64,000 nucleotides of DNA from a virus. The stretch covers positions 1 through 64,000 of the IMG/VR virus record IMGVR_UViG_3300043395_000996. One strand, written 5' to 3'. Below are positions 477 to 64,000 of this stretch, piece after piece. The position numbers and the translations under genes are program-made. Under the pieces are notes generated by a model. That model made no database searches. It was not told the DNA's origin and saw only the letters and a list, made by a program, of their open reading frames with translations. Every line of letters begins with the position of its first letter. Within the stretch, counting starts at the first letter, position 1.

Positions 477-512
477 AGCCGTTTTATTTATATATTAACA
501 ATTTTGTTTTAG

Positions 513-586
513 TGTCCATAGTAGGATTCGAACCTACACAATCTGGTGTCTAAAGCCAGTGCGGTTGCCAATTACGCCATACGGAC
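513..586 (-). tRNA. tRNA-Leu(TAG), atypical short variable arm
   Basis: Acceptor GTCCGTA/TATGGAC, anticodon loop TT-TAG-AC, T-arm GTAGG-TTCGAAT-CCTAC, 5-nt variable loop. Confidence 0.8.
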
Positions 587-594
587 ATTTTCAG

Positions 595-684
595 TAGAGA
601 GTAAGAGGTTCGAACTCTTGCGCCGGTTTTATCCGACCTACCTCGTTAGCAATGAGGCCCCTTCACCAACTTGGGTAACTCTCT
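595..684 (-). tRNA. tRNA-Ser(GCT)
   Basis: Acceptor AGAGAGT/ACTCTCT, loop TT-GCT-AA, long variable arm, TTCGAAC T-loop. Confidence 0.92.
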
Positions 685-687
685 ATT

Positions 688-1341
688 TTATTTTTTTGGT
701 GTTCTTCCCAATTTCCATCCAGTAGGAACAATTCCCATCATTTTTATTTTTTTGTTTTGTTCACCATTTGTTATCCATTGAGAACCAAATTGAGAATTGT
801 ATTCTCCTTTTTGCTTTAATGAGTTAGCCAATCCTATTTTTAATTTAGTTTCTTCTTTATGTTGCTTTCCTGTCCAATTAGGTGCTGATAACTTACCTTC
901 TTTCCACAATTTAGTCAGAACATTTGACCCATTTTCTTTTAATTGTTTTGTTCTTTTTTCATTCCATTCTTTGTTGTTTTCTTTTAACCATTTTTGTCTT
1001 TGATTGGATTTTATTGCGTTTTGTTTTTGTTCCTCATTTGTAAATCCACGACCACCTTCTCCACCTACAATTAAATTCAAACATTCATTTTTAGCTATTT
1101 CATTCAAATTAACTATTTCTTTTTCTCTATTTTTTAATTCCTCCCGTGATGTACAAAATTCAATAATTTCAACAATATGATTTTCTTTACCATATTTGTT
1201 TATCGAATATCGTAATCTCTTTCCACTCCCGAGATAACCATCATTTAGATTATCAGTTGAATGCATTCCAATATAATATCTATTTGTTAATATATTGGTA
1301 GTTTTGTAAATAAAATGGTATTTTCTTTGTTTCCTTGCCAT
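688..1341 (-). mobile_element. Free-standing GIY-YIG (Seg-like) homing endonuclease with NUMOD3-type DNA-binding motif
   Basis: FIYKTTN...YYIGMH...YLGSG catalytic motif, conserved E (KEIV), C-terminal GKQHKEETKLKI motif; inserted between tRNA-His and tRNA-Ser. Confidence 0.88.
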
Positions 1342-1396
1342 ATTATATGTGTTTTATACATATAAATATAACAAAGTACAAAAAATAACCAAAGTG

Positions 1397-1468
1397 GGTG
1401 AATAATGGGATTCGAACCCATACTAACAGAACCACAATCTGTCGTGCTACCCTTACACAATAAACACC
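1397..1468 (-). tRNA. tRNA-His(GTG)
   Basis: G-1:C73, loop TT-GTG-GT, TTCGAAT; two U-U mismatches in acceptor stem. Confidence 0.85.
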
Positions 1469-1473
1469 ATATG

Positions 1474-1543
1474 TTGCGTGTATGAGGTTCGAACTCATTT
1501 GGCCATCCTTATGAGAGATAGCTATTTTCCACTAATCCACGCA
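1474..1543 (-). tRNA. Degenerate tRNA with CAT anticodon (Met or Ile2)
   Basis: Loop CT-CAT-AA, T-arm ATGAG-TTCGAAC-CTCAT, acceptor TGCGTG/CACGCA; D-arm non-canonical. Confidence 0.6.
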
Positions 1544-1548
1544 GTTTG

Positions 1549-1620
1549 AGGCAAGTATTGGAGTCGAACCAATGTAAGAGGTTTTGCAGACCTTCACCTA
1601 ACCACCTCGGCCAACCTGCC
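1549..1620 (-). tRNA. tRNA-Cys(GCA)
   Basis: Acceptor GGCAGGT/ACTTGCC, U73, loop CT-GCA-AA. Confidence 0.9.
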
Positions 1621-1626
1621 TTATTT

Positions 1627-1680
1627 TGTTCACTTTTTTTGTTTGTTCACGTTTTTGTGAACATTCTGAATTTGTGAACA
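1627..1680. repeat. Nested inverted repeat: TGTTCAC x2 followed by GTGAACA x2
   Basis: Boxes at 1627, 1644, 1657 and 1674 with symmetric 10/6/10-nt spacers. Confidence 0.85.
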
Positions 1681-1683
1681 TTG

Positions 1684-1755
1684 TAGTTCCATTAGGACTC
1701 GAACCCAAACTTCTTCATCCGTAGTGAAGGGTGCTATCCATTACACCATAGAACC
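1684..1755 (-). tRNA. tRNA-Arg(ACG)
   Basis: Stem CTTCA/TGAAG, loop CT-ACG-GA, TTCGAGT. Confidence 0.92.
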
Positions 1756-1761
1756 AATCAG

Positions 1762-1832
1762 CACGGGTAGTAGGATTCGAACCCACAACAACGGTTTTGG
1801 AGACCGGCATGATACCATTTCACTATACCCAT
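1762..1832 (-). tRNA. tRNA-Trp(CCA)
   Basis: Acceptor ATGGGTA/TACCCGT, G73, loop CT-CCA-AA. Confidence 0.9.
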
Positions 1833-1837
1833 GTATG

Positions 1838-1911
1838 TTGAAGTAGTGGGACTCGAACCTACAACCCCCGCCGTATCAGAGCGGTGCGCTAACCAATTGC
1901 GCCATACTTCA
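1838..1911 (-). tRNA. tRNA-Ile(GAT)
   Basis: Acceptor TGAAGTA/TACTTCA, loop CT-GAT-AC. Confidence 0.93.
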
Positions 1912-1916
1912 ATGTG

Positions 1917-1992
1917 TCGGAATAGCAGGATTCGAACCTGCGTGCTCTTCGTCCCAAACGAAGCGAGATAGACCGGACTCCTCTACATTCCG
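1917..1992 (-). tRNA. tRNA-Pro(TGG)
   Basis: C1-G72, A73, stem CTTCG/CGAAG, loop TT-TGG-GA. Confidence 0.93.
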
Positions 1993-2002
1993 ATAATTAA
2001 TG

Positions 2003-2075
2003 TGAACCCGTTGGGAATCGAACCCAAAACCCCTACATTAAAAGTGTAGTGCTCTACCAATTGAGCTACGAATTC
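2003..2075 (-). tRNA. tRNA-Lys(TTT)
   Basis: TAGCTCAATTGGTAGAGC D-arm, loop CT-TTT-AA. Confidence 0.93.
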
Positions 2076-2081
2076 ATATTG

Positions 2082-2155
2082 TGGAATTTGTGGAAATCGA
2101 ATCACACTCCTCTGGTTTTTCAGACCAGCGTACGCACCAGCTATACCAAAATTCC
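2082..2155 (-). tRNA. tRNA-Phe(GAA)
   Basis: Acceptor GGAATTT/AAATTCC, loop CT-GAA-AA; T-stem has a bulge and A53-U61. Confidence 0.85.
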
Positions 2156-2160
2156 GATTG

Positions 2161-2242
2161 TGCCTGCAGATGGACTCGAACCACCGAACTCAAATGAGAG
2201 CTGATTTACAGTCAGCCGCAATTGCCACTATGCGATACAGGC
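2161..2242 (-). tRNA. tRNA-Tyr(GTA)
   Basis: Loop CT-GTA-AA, long variable arm, acceptor GCCTGTA/TGCAGGC. Confidence 0.93.
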
Positions 2243-2250
2243 ATAAATTG

Positions 2251-2323
2251 TAGGAGATATAAGATTCGAACTTATGACCCCTTGGATGTAAACCAAGTGC
2301 TCTCACCGCTGAGCTAATCTCCT
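2251..2323 (-). tRNA. tRNA-Val(TAC)
   Basis: Acceptor AGGAGAT/ATCTCCT, loop TT-TAC-AT. Confidence 0.93.
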
Positions 2324-2326
2324 ATT

Positions 2327-2401
2327 TGGCGGGGATAGAAGGATTCGAACCTACAACCTACGGATTAACAGTCCGTTGCTCTACCATTGAGCTATATCCC
2401 C
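2327..2401 (-). tRNA. tRNA-Asn(GTT), CCA encoded
   Basis: Acceptor GGGGATA/TATCCCC, G73, CCA, loop CT-GTT-AA. Confidence 0.95.
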
Positions 2402-2440
2402 AAAACAAAAAACCCCCTAACTTTTTATCGTTAGAGGGTT
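2402..2440 (-). terminator. Intrinsic terminator directly upstream of the tRNA array (candidate attenuator)
   Basis: 11-bp stem AACCCUCUAAC/GUUAGGGGGUU, 8-nt loop, then UUUUGUUUU abutting tRNA-Asn. Confidence 0.85.
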
Positions 2441-2464
2441 CATGTATTACGTTGATTTTGCTTA

Positions 2465-2626
2465 TTATCCAACATCAGTATCCTCTAACTTATTAGTGCT
2501 AATATAATCCACCTTGCCTAAATTCAAGACTGCCGGATTAGCTATGGCACTAAACATACTAATCCCTGTCCACTCACATCTTTGTGTTGGCAGTTGATTG
2601 TTCGTATGTAAAGTTAAAGTTTTCAT
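2465..2626 (-). CDS. 53-aa putative leader peptide (MKTLTLH...EDTDVG)
   Basis: Second ATG of the tracked ORF; stop lies 24 nt before the terminator; last codons contain an 8-nt complement of the terminator 5' arm. Confidence 0.6.
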   Translation of the reverse strand: MKTLTLHTNNQLPTQRCEWTGISMFSAIANPAVLNLGKVDYISTNKLEDTDVG

Positions 2627-2651
2627 TGTTAATATATATCTAAAATTTAAA

Positions 2652-3736
2652 AAAAAGTAATTTGATTTCAAAATAAGCCATCCAAGTCATGCTCTGGTTA
2701 TTATCAGCCTCATCAAATTACCTTTGAGCGGTGCGAAGGTTTCGCTCCCCCTCCTCCTATCTGGAATGATAGGCGTGCTACTATTACACCAATACCGCTT
2801 ATAAAAATAAGGATGAGAATACTCCATATTGTGAACCAGCTTTCGAAAGATTATTGTTTCCTTTCTTTTCCACTTCCTTTTGAGAAGTACCAATTCAATG
2901 TGGGTTAGTTGAGCCAACCACTCTTAAAGTTTCAAACTACTCTCTTCCTACTTATTTTCTTCAACCCTGCCGAGCTGATTCACACTTGCGATGTTAGAAA
3001 CCTTTCAAAAGAATCACAGACCTCTTGCGGAGGTATCGTGGCAGGGAACAACTCCCTACTATGTACACACCTTTCATCTGAAACTGGTAAACACTTTTGC
3101 TTAATTTGATTTATAAGTTTGCACCATATAGCAAATTGAGTTTTGGTTTGTAGATGGATTCAGGTAGTGGTTTACCACAAGCTCCGTTATCTTTTGAACA
3201 ACAGAATACTATACTACCCGATGCGTTATCCCTAACGCCATACTTCAAGTCATCTTCATTAGAAGGGGTTGGTGCCCCACACTAAAGGATAGTAACGCCA
3301 CCACGCGTACACAGTCTTATCTTACGTCCTTTCGGATAGCTTGATGTTAAGACCACTTTGGTATTGAATCACGCAATAGTAAGGAGAGATTAAGTCCTTA
3401 TGTCTTACAATAATTCTATGAGTTATTCTTATTGTTGTTCCCAACTCAACTGAACAATCTACGTTTGCCCAGTCATTCCGGCTCTTCGATGATAGTGTTA
3501 CCCCCACCTACAAAGTCAGAATGATATCTCACTTGCCTACTCAAGCTCCATTTCTGAAACCGCAGAATGTTTAACCAAACATCCCACTTTATCCTACTTT
3601 CGTAGTTTATTTGACGACCATAGGCGGCCGTTGTTATACTATGTAGAACGAATCTACTATGTATAATCTTTTCAATAATTTAAAGAACTTTCCGTTTGGA
3701 TACCGAGTATCTTTCATCACCTATGAGTTCCAAACT
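2652..3736 (-). ncRNA. Large structured non-coding RNA (~1.1 kb), GOLLD-class candidate
   Basis: No credible ORF, GC higher than flanks, many hairpins incl. GNRA loops (CUAC-GAAA-GUAG, UCC-GAAA-GGA), promoter at 3742-3773, 14-bp 3' stem (2653-2666/2712-2725) plus U-tract; class assignment is inference. Confidence 0.6.
2727..2798 (-). tRNA. Non-canonical tRNA-Gly(TCC)-like element embedded in the large RNA
   Basis: G1-C72, C2-G71, G3-C70, U73 Gly identity; 8-nt anticodon loop CATTCCAG; T-loop AGCGAAA instead of TTCGAAT. Confidence 0.65.
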
Positions 3737-3741
3737 TTTAA

Positions 3742-3773
3742 CAAATATACGAAACTTTTTTCGTATTTCCTAA
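3742..3773 (-). promoter_or_regulatory. Bacteroidota-type sigma70 promoter for the large ncRNA
   Basis: TTAG-N20-TATATTTG; matches the known -33 TTTG / -7 TAnnTTTG consensus. Confidence 0.75.
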
Positions 3774-3800
3774 TCTTTTTTTATTTTTTTCAAAATGTTT

Positions 3801-3874
3801 TAGTGGTGTCCGGCTTTCTTCCCAACTGCGTTGGTCACACATTCGGTTTTATTAGATGTTGGCTTCAACCACTA
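3801..3874 (-). ncRNA. Small orphan structured RNA candidate
   Basis: Closing stem TAGTGGT/ACCACTA, internal CCAAC-GCA-GTTGG hairpin, own promoter at 3891-3922. Confidence 0.45.
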
Positions 3875-3890
3875 TCTCATTTTGTTATCA

Positions 3891-3922
3891 CAAATATACG
3901 AAAACATTTTCACATTTCCTAA
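3891..3922 (-). promoter_or_regulatory. Bacteroidota-type promoter
   Basis: TTAG-N20-TATATTTG. Confidence 0.7.
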
Positions 3923-3946
3923 TTTATTTGTAAATATTTTTTTTAG

Positions 3947-4019
<73 letters not shown>

Positions 4020-4062
4020 ATGTATTTTAAAGAACTTCTATATTGTTGTATTTATATATATA

Positions 4063-4094
4063 CAAATATACGGAAAAAAATTCAAAGTATCAAA
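4063..4094 (-). promoter_or_regulatory. Bacteroidota-type promoter upstream of tRNA-fMet
   Basis: TTTG-N20-TATATTTG. Confidence 0.75.
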
Positions 4095-5322
4095 TATATT
4101 TTATATTTTTTTTAAAAATATTTTGAAATTCGGGAATAAACATTGTATTAATTATATTTTGTTTATGTTCTATACTTTTAAATAATGCTTTATTGTATTC
4201 CAAAATTTCCAATACTTCTTTTGTGTTCCATTTTTCAGCCAACTCTTTTGCTACTGATACGATTTTATTCAACTTAATATCCACATTTTCTTCGAAATCA
4301 TAACTCTCGTCAATAATATCTCCAAAAGTTTTAAACCCCATTTGATGTAATCTATCTAAATGCCCGTTGGTTGCACTTATAACAAACGGAACTCCCATAT
4401 AAATTGGCTTCCACGTTTTTTCGGTTATATGTATTGTATCATCAAACCTATCATCATTTGTATAATCCAAAAATGTTTCAGTAACAATGTTTACTTTTGT
4501 TTTAAAGAATATATCAGTATTCAATTTATACAAATAATCATCGCTTTTTAAAATATCGTTTGTTTCTGCTAAATCATTTTCTAATACTATGGGTAATTTA
4601 TTCAATCCCATTGTATCAGCGTATTCATTTAAAGAATCATCTTTACTCAAAGCATACTTTGTATCAGATAATACTGATAAAATTGTATAAATACTTTTAT
4701 CCAATAAGCCATTATCAATTATTTCTTTGAATAATTTAAATTTATTCAATCCCAATCTTCTATTAAGAATAAGATAATCTTTTTCTTTTTCAAATTGCGT
4801 ATTAATTGGTTCTGGCAATTCAAATAATGTTGATACAAAAAAATGTGGAAAATGAAATGTATTCAAATTATAATCTCTGATTTTAACAACTTTATGCTTC
4901 ATTGAGATGCTATTGTTATAAATCATAGCTAATCTATTTTGCGAAATTTGCATTAATTTGAATTTTTCCAAAAAGAAAACCATTTCTGCGGTTATATAAA
5001 CATCCGCTTCCATCACATTATCTATTAGAAAATTAAAACCTTTTTCTGCTAAAATATGAACTATTTCAAAAAACTTTTTAGTAAATATAAATCCCTGCTT
5101 TCTATATAATGGTTTATCTATTGGTTCATTATATGAATCGGGTAGATATCTACTCCAATTAAAAATTAAAAAATTGGATTTTGATTCATCAATTGAATCA
5201 TAGTTAAATGTTTCATCTATTTCAATACGTGTAATATCATATCCCAATTTTTCCAAATCGGTAAGTACATTACTACCCTGAAATGTATAAAATACACATT
5301 TATTTAAATAACCAATTTTCAC
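4090..5322 (-). CDS. Hypothetical protein, C-terminal ITEKTWKP..PF..GF.TF..IDESYD domain (possibly GT10-like)
   Basis: 410 aa; C-terminal motif shared with 35664..36770. Confidence 0.6.
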   Translation of the reverse strand: MKIGYLNKCVFYTFQGSNVLTDLEKLGYDITRIEIDETFNYDSIDESKSNFLIFNWSRYLPDSYNEPIDKPLYRKQGFIFTKKFFEIVHILAEKGFNFLIDNVMEADVYITAEMVFFLEKFKLMQISQNRLAMIYNNSISMKHKVVKIRDYNLNTFHFPHFFVSTLFELPEPINTQFEKEKDYLILNRRLGLNKFKLFKEIIDNGLLDKSIYTILSVLSDTKYALSKDDSLNEYADTMGLNKLPIVLENDLAETNDILKSDDYLYKLNTDIFFKTKVNIVTETFLDYTNDDRFDDTIHITEKTWKPIYMGVPFVISATNGHLDRLHQMGFKTFGDIIDESYDFEENVDIKLNKIVSVAKELAEKWNTKEVLEILEYNKALFKSIEHKQNIINTMFIPEFQNIFKKNIKYI

Positions 5323-5327
5323 AAATT

Positions 5328-5792
5328 TTATTTTAATCTATATGATAGACCTGCTCCTAACGAAAATTCTGAACCTGTTACGTTAGCGATTAATAGTAAT
5401 TTCATGTCTTTACTATGTAATGGATTCCAGCCGATGAACCAATTTAGTTTGCTTCCTTCGATGGTTGGTTGAACACCTGCTCCCAATAACAATTTATTTG
5501 GTTGTAGTTGCTTTAATATACCGAATCTCATATCCTTCGATACAGTTCCATTTGCTCTATTTAGAATTTGCTTATCATTATAAGGAACTCCAGCGTATAA
5601 ACCCCATTCACCAACCATATAACCTGCGGTGATGTATCCATCTTGCTGTCTATTTGTTCCAAAGACGATTAATTCTTGCGGAGCCTGTTTTTTGATTCTA
5701 AAATAGGAATCAATTCTTTGCTCCAAACTTTGCCCAATTGCTGCAACTTTCACTCCCAAAAGTAATACAGCGGCTAACATTAACTTTTTCAT
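5328..5792 (-). CDS. Secreted small outer-membrane beta-barrel-like protein
   Basis: True start MKKLMLAAVLLLG (signal peptide); alternating beta-strand pattern; C-terminal LGAGLSYRLK. Confidence 0.65.
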   Translation of the reverse strand: MKKLMLAAVLLLGVKVAAIGQSLEQRIDSYFRIKKQAPQELIVFGTNRQQDGYITAGYMVGEWGLYAGVPYNDKQILNRANGTVSKDMRFGILKQLQPNKLLLGAGVQPTIEGSKLNWFIGWNPLHSKDMKLLLIANVTGSEFSLGAGLSYRLK

Positions 5793-5793
5793 A

Positions 5794-6173
5794 TGGTGGA
5801 GATGACGGGAATCGAACCCGTGTCCAAAAACGGAATGAATAAACCTCATTCACAAGCTTAGTTTGTTTTTCTTAACAAACAAAATAGATAAGTTTTTATA
5901 CATTTCATTATCATCAATGTTCCCCACTCTTATTTAGAGAGTCAGCGAGCCGTACTCTATTCGTTCACTTCTTTTTAAAGCCCCACGAGTGATGCGGGAG
6001 AGATTAGGCAGCTACTGCGTAATCAGCACCTACGAATGCCATAGCATCTTCGAAGGTCATTGTAGATAATTCTACTGCGTTTATTGTTCGATAGGTATTT
6101 ACGGATTTCCATCTAACCCGGCTTGCATCAATTGTACCCTTTCATCGTCTCTGTCAAATGCCAGAGCATCCCC
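5794..6173 (-). ncRNA. ssrA: tmRNA; tag (A)AVELSTMTFEDAMAFVGADYAVAA* at 6004-6078
   Basis: 5' GGGGATG...GGCATTTGAC, 3' GGTTCGATTCCCGTCATCTCCACCA, G3.U70 Ala identity, tag ends YAVAA. Confidence 0.93.
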
Positions 6174-8833: not shown

Positions 8834-8855
8834 AACTCATCTTTCTTATTGACAA

Positions 8856-38467: not shown

Positions 38468-40102
<1,635 letters not shown>

Positions 40103-61964: not shown

Positions 61965-64000
61965 TTAAAAACTAAAAAACTTTTTAGCGGTTTGAGCTTC
62001 AGCAGATGCTTTTTCCCATTTCAATGCGTTATAAAAATCATTAACTTTGTTTTCCAACTCTGCTTTATAAATCATATCTCTATCCACATATTGCTCTACG
62101 AAATCCATAATTTCTTGTGGGTCATTGTAATCTTTGAATGCGACGGTATCCAATCCTAACGGATTTGTTTTAAGATATACCCACTTCACTTTATCACCAT
62201 CTCTAATTGGTTCGTGCTTATATGGACAATTGAAAAACTTTAATAATCTATTATAAGATATACCAGCTTTAACGTGCGCCGGTGTTCCTTTTTCAAAATC
62301 AGCAATTGCTTGTCCTCCATCTTTTCTCCACGTTCCATTATCATATTTACTCAACTCCTTAATCGCTCCACCCTTTGCTATTTTATTTACTGGCAAAGTT
62401 ACCATTTCTTTTTTGAAGTTAAGTAAAGATTCATCCATAAATGCATTATCTTTACCCATTAGAATATCTTTCAACATTTTAGCCATAAAGTCCTGAAATG
62501 CTTTCGGAAACGATGAACGAACCACATCCAATCCTTTTACATCCAACTTATCACAAGGTACACCATTCTTTAAAATCATCCATTGTGCATATCGTTTCTT
62601 TGCTACCCAAAATCCCGCTTTACTGATGTACTCTTTCTTAATTTCAAATCTATGTTTTTCCTTTGGAATAAAAAAGAATCTTTCAGCCAACATATCATAG
62701 AATGAGTTTAAGAATGTTTGAGTTTCTTCGGCAATTGTGTTTACCTCTTCAGCCATTCTATTTTGGTCGAATGTTTTGTATTCGGGATAACGATGCTTCA
62801 CCAATGGTTCTGCCATCATATAAATGGAATCAGTATCGATGTACACATTATAATCTTCTTTAGTTCCGAGTTCTTTCCAATATTTGATGTTTGCCATTTC
62901 TGCTGTTTTCTTAATAACAGTTTGGCCCGTAATCGTAACTGCCTCTGCATTATCAATATCGTAAAACCGAAAGGCAGGAAGACCAAGCACACCATACATA
63001 GAGTTAAGAAGAATCTTCTGAACCAACTGCCTTTTCGCATAAAATTCATATTTTTCCGTATCACCCTCCGTACCATATTTCTTTTCTAATTTTCTAAATT
63101 CAACACGTTTTTGAAACCAATCATTTAAAATATCCGCAATAAGACCAGGTGAATCCTGTGAGTATAAAACTCCGTTAGCTGCTACTCCTAAATTACTATC
63201 TTTAATAACTTCTTTTAGTTCCTGTGTTGTATATTCATACTCATCACCATCCTTACCAATAACTTTATAGGTTGTATCCAATCCTTTAATATTAGCTTCC
63301 GCATCCCAATTTTGAATCTTACCAATTTTTGTTTCGGGACTGATGTTTAGAGTCATAATGATTGATGGATATAGAGATGTTAAGTCCAAATCATAAATCC
63401 AATCGTACTTACCAACAATAGGTTCTTTCACATAAGCTCCAATAAACTTCTCTTCGTTGTTATCACGGAGTGCCTGCATCCTTTCTTTTCTATCCTTTGG
63501 TTTATTAGTTGCTACTAATCCTTTCTTTTTCAGATATCCCAAACATGCCCCCTCTAACCATTTAGAGGAGAATATGTAATCTTCGTATGGAACAAATCCG
63601 GCATGGCAAACGGCTCTACATAATTCAATGAATTGTAATTTGTTATCCATTGCTACAACCAACTCCACGTCAACAATGTTATACTCAATAAACTTCTCTA
63701 AATCATTTACAAATAAATCATCTAAACTTCCTTCATACTCAACCTTACCTCTACCTAATTCTTTGGTAGCAATGTAATTCAATGTATAAGATGCTTCCAA
63801 TGTATATGTGTATGTTTTATATAGATTGATGTAATCTAACACACTCACTCCACCAAAACTGAACTTCTCTCTATATGGTGACCAGAATGCCTCACCAATG
63901 CGAGATAATCTTTTAGCATGTCCTTCCCCACATACGTTTTTAATACGATTGTAGAGATATGGAATATCAAAGAAATCGATGTTCCAACCTGTTAAGATTG
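61965..64000 (-). CDS. DNA polymerase family B (5' end beyond window)
   Basis: Frame is open to the window edge (ILTGWNIDFFDIPYLYNR, Exo II); DLTSLYPS, KILLNSMYG, YIDTDS, KKRYA. Confidence 0.97.
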   Translation of the reverse strand, partial: ILTGWNIDFFDIPYLYNRIKNVCGEGHAKRLSRIGEAFWSPYREKFSFGGVSVLDYINLYKTYTYTLEASYTLNYIATKELGRGKVEYEGSLDDLFVNDLEKFIEYNIVDVELVVAMDNKLQFIELCRAVCHAGFVPYEDYIFSSKWLEGACLGYLKKKGLVATNKPKDRKERMQALRDNNEEKFIGAYVKEPIVGKYDWIYDLDLTSLYPSIIMTLNISPETKIGKIQNWDAEANIKGLDTTYKVIGKDGDEYEYTTQELKEVIKDSNLGVAANGVLYSQDSPGLIADILNDWFQKRVEFRKLEKKYGTEGDTEKYEFYAKRQLVQKILLNSMYGVLGLPAFRFYDIDNAEAVTITGQTVIKKTAEMANIKYWKELGTKEDYNVYIDTDSIYMMAEPLVKHRYPEYKTFDQNRMAEEVNTIAEETQTFLNSFYDMLAERFFFIPKEKHRFEIKKEYISKAGFWVAKKRYAQWMILKNGVPCDKLDVKGLDVVRSSFPKAFQDFMAKMLKDILMGKDNAFMDESLLNFKKEMVTLPVNKIAKGGAIKELSKYDNGTWRKDGGQAIADFEKGTPAHVKAGISYNRLLKFFNCPYKHEPIRDGDKVKWVYLKTNPLGLDTVAFKDYNDPQEIMDFVEQYVDRDMIYKAELENKVNDFYNALKWEKASAEAQTAKKFFSF

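Follow-up and report, generated by a model that had tools for sequence, protein, structure and literature searches.

A full-length GOLLD RNA gene with a boxA-like leader word and a tRNA-like tail in an uncultured phage of about 180 kb

What is the RNA that an uncultured phage appears to encode in gene-poor DNA beside its transfer RNA (tRNA) array, where does it begin and end, and how might it be made? The DNA in question is from an IMG/VR virus record (IMGVR_UViG_3300043395_000996) of 179,990 bp that is estimated to be 95% complete, the first 64 kb of which are referred to here as the window. An earlier note, made from the letters alone, had flagged 1,085 nucleotides (nt) at positions 2652-3736 as a structured RNA of ~1.1 kb free of open reading frames (ORFs), and had left open whether it was a member of the GOLLD family or a new giant RNA class. 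GOLLD is among the largest bacterial or phage non-coding RNAs and forms an RNA-only cage. Our analysis suggests that window positions 2649-3775 on the minus strand very probably form a single transcription unit for stable RNA in this uncultured ~180-kb phage, the product of which is a full-length GOLLD. The window GOLLD is an ordinary, full-length example of a family that is already catalogued, found in its textbook setting, and not a new kind of RNA.

To identify the RNA, cmscan was run with Rfam 15 on the whole window, as the earlier note had proposed. GOLLD (RF02032; gathering score 150) was matched at 2810-3221 on the minus strand with 305.9 bits, an E-value of 1.3e-86, and coverage of the model from end to end (1-416 of 416), and just three non-standard pairs were flagged in the alignment. 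At gathering thresholds, this was the sole large match in the window besides tRNAs and transfer-messenger RNA (tmRNA), and the full 179,990-bp record carries one GOLLD only. Relatives of the window GOLLD, described below, score 269-302 bits. Membership in the GOLLD family is established here, and a new giant RNA class is excluded because the match to RF02032 is full-length and the rival Rfam families considered gave no match in the region. A permissive scan (E <= 1), restricted to window positions 2400-4000, returned besides GOLLD only the neighboring tRNA-Met and a sub-threshold match to Flavo-1 inside GOLLD (E 0.15). ROOL, group I and II introns, RNase P, and ribosomal RNA (rRNA) gave no Rfam match in 2400-4000 at E <= 1 or in the whole window at gathering thresholds; a known intron or rRNA fragment, which had been named beforehand as evidence against a GOLLD-like RNA, is among these negatives.

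The extent of the RNA was evaluated by comparison with relatives, which were gathered by searching IMG/VR with a 25-nt motif taken from the 3' domain. This returned 68 loci (given L numbers below) and biases the set towards GOLLDs that share the motif. The core was aligned with MAFFT across 41 non-redundant sequences, comprising the window and 40 IMG/VR relatives, with a mean column identity of 63%. Core identity to the window is 90% in L025 and L031, 75-78% in six others, and 58-66% in the remainder. When window positions 3780-2640 were used as a blastn query, distant relatives (64-69% identity) aligned from query position ~150 to ~980, corresponding to ~3631 to ~2800 in the window, and the first and last 150 nt of the query were common to the nearest relatives only. 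The conserved GOLLD RNA comprises ~822 nt (2810-3631), made up of a 5' domain of ~409 nt and a 3' domain of 412 nt. The solved env-38 GOLLD, from a marine metagenome, is 833 nt long with domains of 420 and 413 nt (Kretsch et al., 2025; PMC12286853). The flagged 1,085 nt correspond to the transcription unit and not to the GOLLD RNA proper, such that the ~1.1-kb size holds for the unit while the RNA itself is ~0.82 kb. Among 50,697 phage records screened with blastn, only two uncultured phages of >600 kb gave matches, and these were partial (67-70% identity).

The Rfam model spans the 3' half of GOLLD only and the 5' region of the family is less conserved (PMC12286853), which would accommodate a new giant RNA class that merely resembles GOLLD or a GOLLD 3' domain that has been joined to an unrelated 5' RNA. 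Three relatives that have the 3' motif but align poorly in the 5' region, at ~41% identity (L011, L049, and L063), would be in keeping with such an arrangement. Nevertheless, we consider it very unlikely given a full-model match at twice the cut-off and a 5' half that aligns to 40 other GOLLD loci, forms 20 covarying helices, and has the same length as the 5' domain of env-38.

The region was confirmed to be ORF-free in that the longest frames overlapping 2652-3736 encode 76, 66, 61, and 87 amino acids. Its guanine plus cytosine content, which had been described as higher than that of its flanks, is 0.38-0.41 over 2700-3750; this is above the protein-coding flank at 4050-5400 (0.22-0.31) but below the tRNA array (0.43-0.47). 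RNAalifold applied to the 41 sequences yielded 177 pairs, 138 of which had at least one sequence changed on both sides with pairing kept, and a RIBOSUM-scored consensus yielded 222 pairs in 39 helices, with the window making standard pairs at 209 of 220. On the RIBOSUM structure, 95.0% of cells were paired, as compared to 76.6% in column shuffles, none of 500 of which attained 95.0%, and to 39-44% after the 3' partners had been slid by 1-3 columns. Covariation among homologs, the absence of which the earlier note would have counted against an RNA, is present: 155 pairs were changed on both sides in the 41 sequences, versus 114 in shuffled and 61-78 in slid alignments, with covariation scores of 0.57, 0.22, and 0.09-0.11, respectively. 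Because covariation exceeds that in both the shuffled and the slid controls, both the 5' and the 3' domain are considered real. The 5' domain (helices 2-21) covaries on a par with the 3' domain, whose helices in the 41-sequence alignment (22-39) are mostly changed on both sides. Long-range helices spanning the whole core were also identified (e.g., alignment columns 370-385 with 523-539 and 714-724 with 867-882), and the GOLLD core is therefore one molecule.

Long, ORF-poor, hairpin-dense DNA beside tRNAs would also be expected of several separate small RNA cassettes in series, of a group of short protein-coding genes, or of a known RNA such as a self-splicing intron, an RNase P RNA, or a piece of rRNA. 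We give these explanations almost no credence, since the permissive scan of 2400-4000 identified no Rfam family but GOLLD (and the sub-threshold Flavo-1), the long-range helices make the core a single molecule, and substitutions in the region track base-pairing rather than codons.

The individual hairpins that had been picked out by eye were evaluated against the alignment. CUAC-GAAA-GUAG (3605-3594) and GGGG-CACCAA-CCCC (3277-3264) coincide with covarying helices in the 41 sequences, the former having a GAAA loop in all 41 while its stem varies. UCC-GAAA-GGA (3335-3326) is the counterpart of a conserved CCGAAAGG hairpin in the relatives, although the alignment is shifted there because of a clade-specific insertion. 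One 5'-domain hairpin (alignment columns 386-403) carries a clade-specific extension that is common to the window, L025, L031, and L042. The bases assigned to UUCUG-CGGUUU-CAGAA belong instead to two other covarying helices (columns 109-140 and 141-186), and that hairpin has been abandoned. The variable linker of the 3' domain carries a small hairpin (UUUGC/GCAAA). An embedded tRNA, as had been raised for GOLLD, was not detected in this linker by ARAGORN at default settings or by Rfam at E <= 1; a degenerate tRNA-like element follows the RNA instead.

Two features of the core bear on whether the RNA forms a cage:

3457-3462, minus strand: loop GUAGAU, which pairs with AUCUAC (3155-3150) at the start of the linker in a covarying 6-bp pairing
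2982-2994, minus strand: hairpin ACAU-CGCAA-GUGU with a self-complementary GC at 2989-2988, distinguished by a GC/CG switch

The pairing between the loop and the linker occurs in 41 of 41 sequences and in five variants (GUAGAU/AUCUAC, GUGGGU/AUCCAC, GUGGAU/AUCCAC, ACCGGU/AUCGGU, and GCAGGU/AUCUGC). It may be formed within a chain or between chains, which sequence cannot distinguish. In hairpin 2982-2994, the loop dinucleotide reads GC in 32 sequences and CG in the other nine. Cryo-EM of the env-38 GOLLD revealed a protein-free closed cage of 14 copies with D7 symmetry and an empty interior (PMC12286853), and a GC/CG switch was used there as support for a symmetric kissing loop, L21a (bridge B8), that joins two cage chains (Kretsch et al.). 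We infer that hairpin 2982-2994 is equivalent to L21a, by its position rather than by alignment to env-38. The window thus keeps the loop-linker pairing and a self-complementary loop of the type that links one chain to another in the solved cage.

The layout of the unit, from 5' to 3', consists of a promoter-like box, a leader hairpin, a boxA-like word, a second hairpin, the GOLLD core, an 11-nt spacer, a tRNA-Gly-like cloverleaf, and a hairpin followed by eight U residues (hairpin-U8):

3741-3775, minus strand: promoter-like repeat with the box UAUAUUUG at 3749-3742, in the TAnnTTTG form of the Bacteroidota -7 element; recognized by repeat enrichment
3694-3735, minus strand: leader hairpin with outer stem GUUUGGA/UCCAAAC around AUAGGUGAUGAAAGAUACUCGGUA, conserved in relatives
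3678-3688, minus strand: boxA-like motif GUUCUUUAAAU, a 10/11 match to the boxA consensus
3634-3666, minus strand: second leader hairpin, UUAUAC/GUAUAA and GUAGA/UCUAC with a 3x3 internal loop between them, from the minimum-free-energy fold
3223-3631, minus strand: GOLLD 5' domain, outside the Rfam model, which aligns to 40 relatives at 58-90% identity and has 20 covarying helices
2810-3221, minus strand: GOLLD 3' domain, with hairpin P13, the variable linker (~3160-3095), and a conserved multi-helix region; delimited by RF02032 and covariation
2799-2809, minus strand: spacer UAUUUUUAUAA from the last GOLLD hairpin to the tRNA-like element, with AUAUAA just before G+1 kept in six relatives
2726-2798, minus strand: degenerate tRNA-Gly(UCC)-like cloverleaf of 73 nt, recognized by ARAGORN at an 80% threshold, by its fold, and in relatives
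2649-2722, minus strand: long hairpin followed by U8 (U tract 2656-2649), from the minimum-free-energy fold and conservation

In Flavobacterium and Bacteroides promoters, TAnnTTTG is described as the -7 box (PMC7641319). The motif TTTCGTATATTTGT, which includes the copy upstream of GOLLD, occurs 12 times in the window as compared to 2.9 expected, and none of 100 shuffles reached 12. Exact copies are on the minus strand at 3741, 3890, and 40914, with near-copies at 4062, 8855, and 30944. Copies precede GOLLD (3741-3754), a small conserved RNA (3890-3903), and tRNA-Met (4062-4075), all on the minus strand, and the motif is kept and repeated in related phages. When up to two mismatches were allowed, minus-strand copies were found at 8855, 30944, 40914, 56377, and 60751, some of which lie between minus-strand genes as judged from ORF coordinates. 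The copies look like one phage promoter class serving both RNA and protein genes. A promoter had been proposed at 3742-3773 in the earlier note; a sigma-70 consensus scan called no site there, and its seven matches over 2300-4200 equal the shuffle mean of 7.0, but the enriched and repeated TTTCGTATATTTGT box does occupy that position. Transcription of GOLLD would be predicted to start near 3735.

The inner sequence AUAGGUGAUGAAAGAUACUCGGUA of the leader hairpin is nearly invariant in six relatives, and the GGA/UCC of the outer stem is replaced by GAA/UUC in L042. The query positions that cover this hairpin (q32-78) also match the distant GOLLD loci L044, L036, L026, and L051. In its position, the hairpin at 3694-3735 is like boxB of an rRNA leader. 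A kink-turn or C-box reading of GUGAUGA within it was rejected, as a partner strand is lacking. The second leader hairpin contains GUAGA-UUCGU-UCUAC (3658-3644), another of the hairpins noted previously; it is kept in close relatives, with an altered outer stem (GCAC.../...GUGU), but lies outside of the conserved core, and most of the distant relatives show another hairpin in its place.

The boxA consensus is GYTCTTTAANA (PMC5725501). GUUCUUUAAAU fits 10 of these 11 positions, with the consensus being gamma-proteobacterial and perhaps not that of the host. The leader word on which the boxA reading rests is GUUCUUUAA. Of the 41 non-redundant loci, 34 carry the motif GTTCTTT[AG]A in the 250 nt that precede the core, in the same orientation as GOLLD, against an expectation of 0.022 per 250 nt, and the remaining seven have one-base variants of it. 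Two of the five boxA-like copies in the window are in the leaders of GOLLD and tRNA-Met. The second of these, GTTCTTTAA at 4027-4035 on the minus strand, is located 8 nt before tRNA-Met and after the promoter-like copy at 4062-4075. With boxA-like and promoter-like copies ahead of both GOLLD and tRNA-Met, both stable-RNA units thus start alike. Nus-dependent antitermination of GOLLD transcription would be a reasonable reading of these sequences. We found no paper that links GOLLD with boxA or antitermination in a search that did not cover Weinberg et al. (2009) or Morgado et al. (2020), and no priority is claimed.

At the 3' flank, the anticodon loop of the tRNA-like element is 8 nt long (CAUUCCAG), its D loop (AAUAGUA) lacks GG, its T loop is AGCGAAA, and CCA is absent; when folded alone, the element forms a cloverleaf of -23.7 kcal/mol. 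The element (2726-2798) was called neither by ARAGORN at default settings nor by the Rfam tRNA model (RF00005) at E <= 1. At the 80% threshold, ARAGORN reports it as 'tRNA-??? (ttcc)' with the 4-base anticodon UUCC, a call made in 1 of 171 shuffled controls. The element is tRNA-like in shape and is not classed as a tRNA. At the same register, a tRNA-Gly(tcc) is called by ARAGORN at default settings in L031, L007, and L045, and L057 has an element that is called at the 90% threshold only, as tRNA-??? (tc). Only one of 72 positions differs between the element in the window and that in L025, though the GOLLD cores are only 90% identical. Relative to L031, the changes in the acceptor and anticodon stems are compensatory, and the D-loop GG and the T-loop UUC have been lost. 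The tRNA-like shape is probably under selection and the decoding features not, which would fit an RNase P processing handle.

The 3' context was counted in 57 non-redundant loci. In 20 of these, a tRNA or tRNA-like element begins between +46 and +56 beyond the 25-nt motif, or 7-17 nt past the end of the Rfam model; the others comprise four with T-arm-like minihelices, 18 with an intrinsic terminator, and 15 with something else. The identities of the abutting tRNAs differ between loci (Gly, Met, Thr, and Cys). In L051, L044, L026, L033, and L043, the sole tRNA in a locus of 7-15 kb is the one that adjoins GOLLD, and in several loci this sole, adjoining tRNA is tRNA-Met.

The terminal hairpin has a 10-bp perfect stem, extended to 14 pairs, around a structured 45-nt loop. 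The 14-bp stem and U-tract of the earlier note were recovered in the minimum-free-energy fold as 14 pairs followed by U8, and the hairpin is conserved in L025 (91%), L042 (85%), and L031 (74%). A simple terminator scan misses it because its loop exceeds 8 nt. It is the probable intrinsic terminator of the unit. A leader-trailer helix enclosing GOLLD, as in rRNA, was considered and dropped, since only a 5-bp A-U match was available. A conserved element of ~200 nt is located between the tRNA-like element and the terminal hairpin in L025 (4153-4371, minus strand), L031 (8742-8952), L045, and L009, whereas the window has lost it by deletion. The opening sequence of this element is UUCGUAGUGGUU and its closing sequence ACCACCCUACAA (ACCACCCUACGAA in L009), the two are complementary, and the element has no Rfam match at E <= 0.01. 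In a distant lineage (L005, L018, L024, L056, L059, and L070), the tRNA-like element is likewise followed by an opening word related to UUCGUAGUGGUU.

Further stable-RNA genes surround the unit, and the following features were identified in the window:

512-2401, minus strand: 13 tRNAs (ARAGORN)
688-1341, minus strand: homing endonuclease that interrupts the tRNA array (profile match to phrog_314, E 2e-37)
3946-4019, minus strand: tRNA-Met (ARAGORN)
5794-6173, minus strand: tmRNA (ARAGORN)
38468-40093, minus strand: GroEL-type chaperonin (profile match to PF00118, E 2.7e-78)
61965-63848, minus strand: family B DNA polymerase (PolB), by homology

In total, 14 tRNAs and the tmRNA are encoded within 3.5 kb of GOLLD and on the same strand, and a GOLLD beside a phage tRNA array is what a specialist would expect. 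Nearby ORFs also include an RNase H-like protein. All 14 tRNAs of the 180-kb record are within its first 4 kb, and the array reaches the end of the contig. L025 and L031 have about nine further tRNAs beyond the point at which the window's contig starts, including a bona fide tRNA-Gly. The record is probably cut inside the tRNA array, and a normal tRNA-Gly may lie beyond its start. The tag encoded by the tmRNA is unusually long (AVELSTMTFEDAMAFVGADYAVAA); it is kept in L025 and L031, and distant relatives differ (e.g., GEYNYAIAA in L009). PolB shares 52% identity with its counterpart in Microcystis phage Mel-JY01 (190 kb), the nearest cultured phage by this protein, and ~32% with those of T4-like cyanophages. 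The GOLLD model finds nothing in Mel-JY01, a result that does not prove absence.

A conserved RNA-like element of ~90 nt (3800-3889, minus strand) is positioned between tRNA-Met and the GOLLD promoter and is preceded by a promoter-like copy of its own (3890-3925). The element has the core sequence GGUUGAAGCCAACAUCUAAUAAAACCGAAUGUGUGA ... AAAGCCGGACAC and is present in seven non-redundant related loci. The closing helix covaries (AGUGGU/ACCACU, AGUGU/ACACU, UGGUUGU/ACAACCA, and UUAAGGU/ACCUUAA), and no Rfam family was matched at 3800-3889 at E <= 1. Because no terminator follows it, the element may be co-transcribed with GOLLD.

How, then, might the RNA be made and what might it do? Transcription probably starts ~7-10 nt past the phage-wide promoter box. 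The leader hairpin and the boxA-like GUUCUUUAAAU might then recruit host NusB/NusE, such that a long, untranslated, structured RNA would escape premature (Rho-type) termination in the manner of rRNA; we regard this step as close to evenly balanced, if a shade on the doubtful side. Cleavage by RNase P at G2798, the 5' edge of the tRNA-like element, could release the 3' end, with hairpin-U8 (2722-2649) ending transcription, a step to which we attach somewhat less confidence. We lean towards the view that the mature GOLLD RNA would self-assemble as a cage. The reading to which we commit is that the RNA would be made in bulk as a stable RNA via machinery of the rRNA and tRNA type, would assemble to a cage, and would act on translation or tRNA handling during infection, with the function being a guess. 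Translation or tRNA handling would be the likeliest functional area, again as a guess, because of the neighboring tmRNA, tRNA-Met, and 13 tRNAs and the published ribosome pull-downs.

GOLLD is described, in work cited in PMC12286853, as having been pulled down with ribosomes. Its genes occur in phages and prophages, close to tRNA islands, and its expression rises at lysis (PMC12286853), and some GOLLDs hold a tRNA in the linker, which prompted the idea of 'inhibited storage' (PMC12990946). A more general proposal, which we offer tentatively and consider unlikely rather than likely, is that the GOLLD genes of this large group of lake phages resemble miniature rRNA operons, where a hairpin and boxA would allow Nus-dependent read-through of a 0.8-kb RNA and the tRNA, or its remnant, 7-17 nt downstream would serve as an RNase P handle.

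Several observations weigh against the reading to which we commit. The promoter, the RNA ends, and the processing are all inferred from sequence. The boxA-like word is not enriched in the window (5 copies versus 3.45 expected), and the last position of GUUCUUUAAAU departs from the gamma-proteobacterial consensus. The tRNA-like element lacks the nucleotides of the tRNA elbow that RNase P recognizes, namely GG in the D loop and UUC in the T loop, and it has A, not U, at position -1. The adjacency of tRNAs could merely reflect the residence of GOLLD in tRNA arrays, and 18 of the 57 relatives end in a plain terminator without a tRNA, so a tRNA is not required. Cage formation by the window RNA would be an extrapolation from a single solved homolog, with equivalences between the window and env-38 that are positional. 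Moreover, the 3' domain of the S. agalactiae GOLLD alone gives mainly decamers (PMC12990946), and stoichiometry therefore varies within the family. Finally, the host is unsettled, with a promoter box that appears Bacteroidota-like and a PolB whose closest cultured phage was reported on Microcystis.

A number of these observations fit a rival explanation that we consider possible, though improbable on balance, namely a GOLLD gene with mechanistically idle flanks. In this case, the tRNA-like element would be a decaying duplicate of tRNA-Gly, the boxA-like word would be due to chance in AT-rich DNA or to a promoter-proximal position, and the product would be an unprocessed RNA of ~1,087 nt from promoter to terminator. 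The failure of the Rfam tRNA model and of ARAGORN at default settings to recognize the element, its complete absence from the close relatives L002 and L037, the terminators of the 18 relatives, the AT-rich genome, and the lack of enrichment of the boxA-like motif within the window are all as this explanation would have it. However, chance is hard to credit for a boxA-like motif that is on the right strand and near the core in 34 of 41 loci. Likewise, the start of the tRNA or tRNA-like element is held to an 11-nt register despite the differing tRNA identities, and the element has one change in 72 nt relative to L025 while the cores differ by ~10%, with compensatory stem changes relative to L031.

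The locus is of modest value as a clean and complete example of GOLLD gene architecture. In the 41 aligned relatives, covariation is as good in the less-studied 5' domain as in the 3' domain. In addition, the recurrent boxA-like leader word and the tRNA or tRNA-like tail at a fixed register make the production and maturation of GOLLD directly testable. If the resemblance to a miniature rRNA operon were true, GOLLD would be produced in bulk as a stable RNA and matured through the rRNA and tRNA machinery of the host, its function would be narrowed towards translation, and the boxA and tRNA-like tag would provide two simple genetic handles to switch GOLLD off.

Elements of this locus can be compared with several known systems. 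tRNA-like handles for the processing of 3' ends are known from MALAT1/mascRNA in mammals and from tRNA-punctuated precursors generally. The window shares with them a non-decoding cloverleaf directly 3' of a long non-coding RNA, where a predicted RNase P cut would make the mature 3' end, whereas the element in the window is without the elbow nucleotides and, in many relatives, a true tRNA or an ordinary terminator takes its place. ROOL is likewise a large, phage-associated, cage-forming RNA near tRNA genes, but it has no match here and its sequence and fold are unrelated to those of GOLLD (PMC12286853). The leaders of rRNA operons (boxB-boxA-boxC with NusB/NusE/SuhB; PMC5725501, PMC4807359) and the nut sites of lambda have in common with the window unit the order of a promoter-like element, a hairpin, and a word similar to GYUCUUUAANA, which come before a long structured untranslated RNA and then tRNA-type elements. 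In contrast to rRNA leaders, the window unit is phage-encoded, its product is not rRNA, and no leader-trailer helix was found.

Among GOLLDs, those of the Lactobacillus brevis ATCC 367 prophage and of mycobacteria (PMC6582537, PMC12990946) share with the window a mobile tRNA cluster, a homing or HNH endonuclease nearby (here at 688-1341), and an association with phages; in mycobacteria, GOLLD is located within tRNA clusters that also carry an HNH endonuclease (PMC6582537). As judged from their descriptions, they differ in holding a tRNA or pseudo-tRNA in the linker (J13/15), whereas the tRNA-like element of the window follows the RNA. Unlike env-38, the window member is from a freshwater-type phage lineage of ~180 kb, has an extended 5'-domain hairpin and a tRNA-free linker, and is known here from its sequence alone. 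What the window GOLLD and env-38 share (PMC12286853) are two domains of ~410 nt, a variable linker, hairpins capped by GNRA and CGCAA loops, the GC/CG loop switch, a phage origin, and a nearby tRNA-Met.

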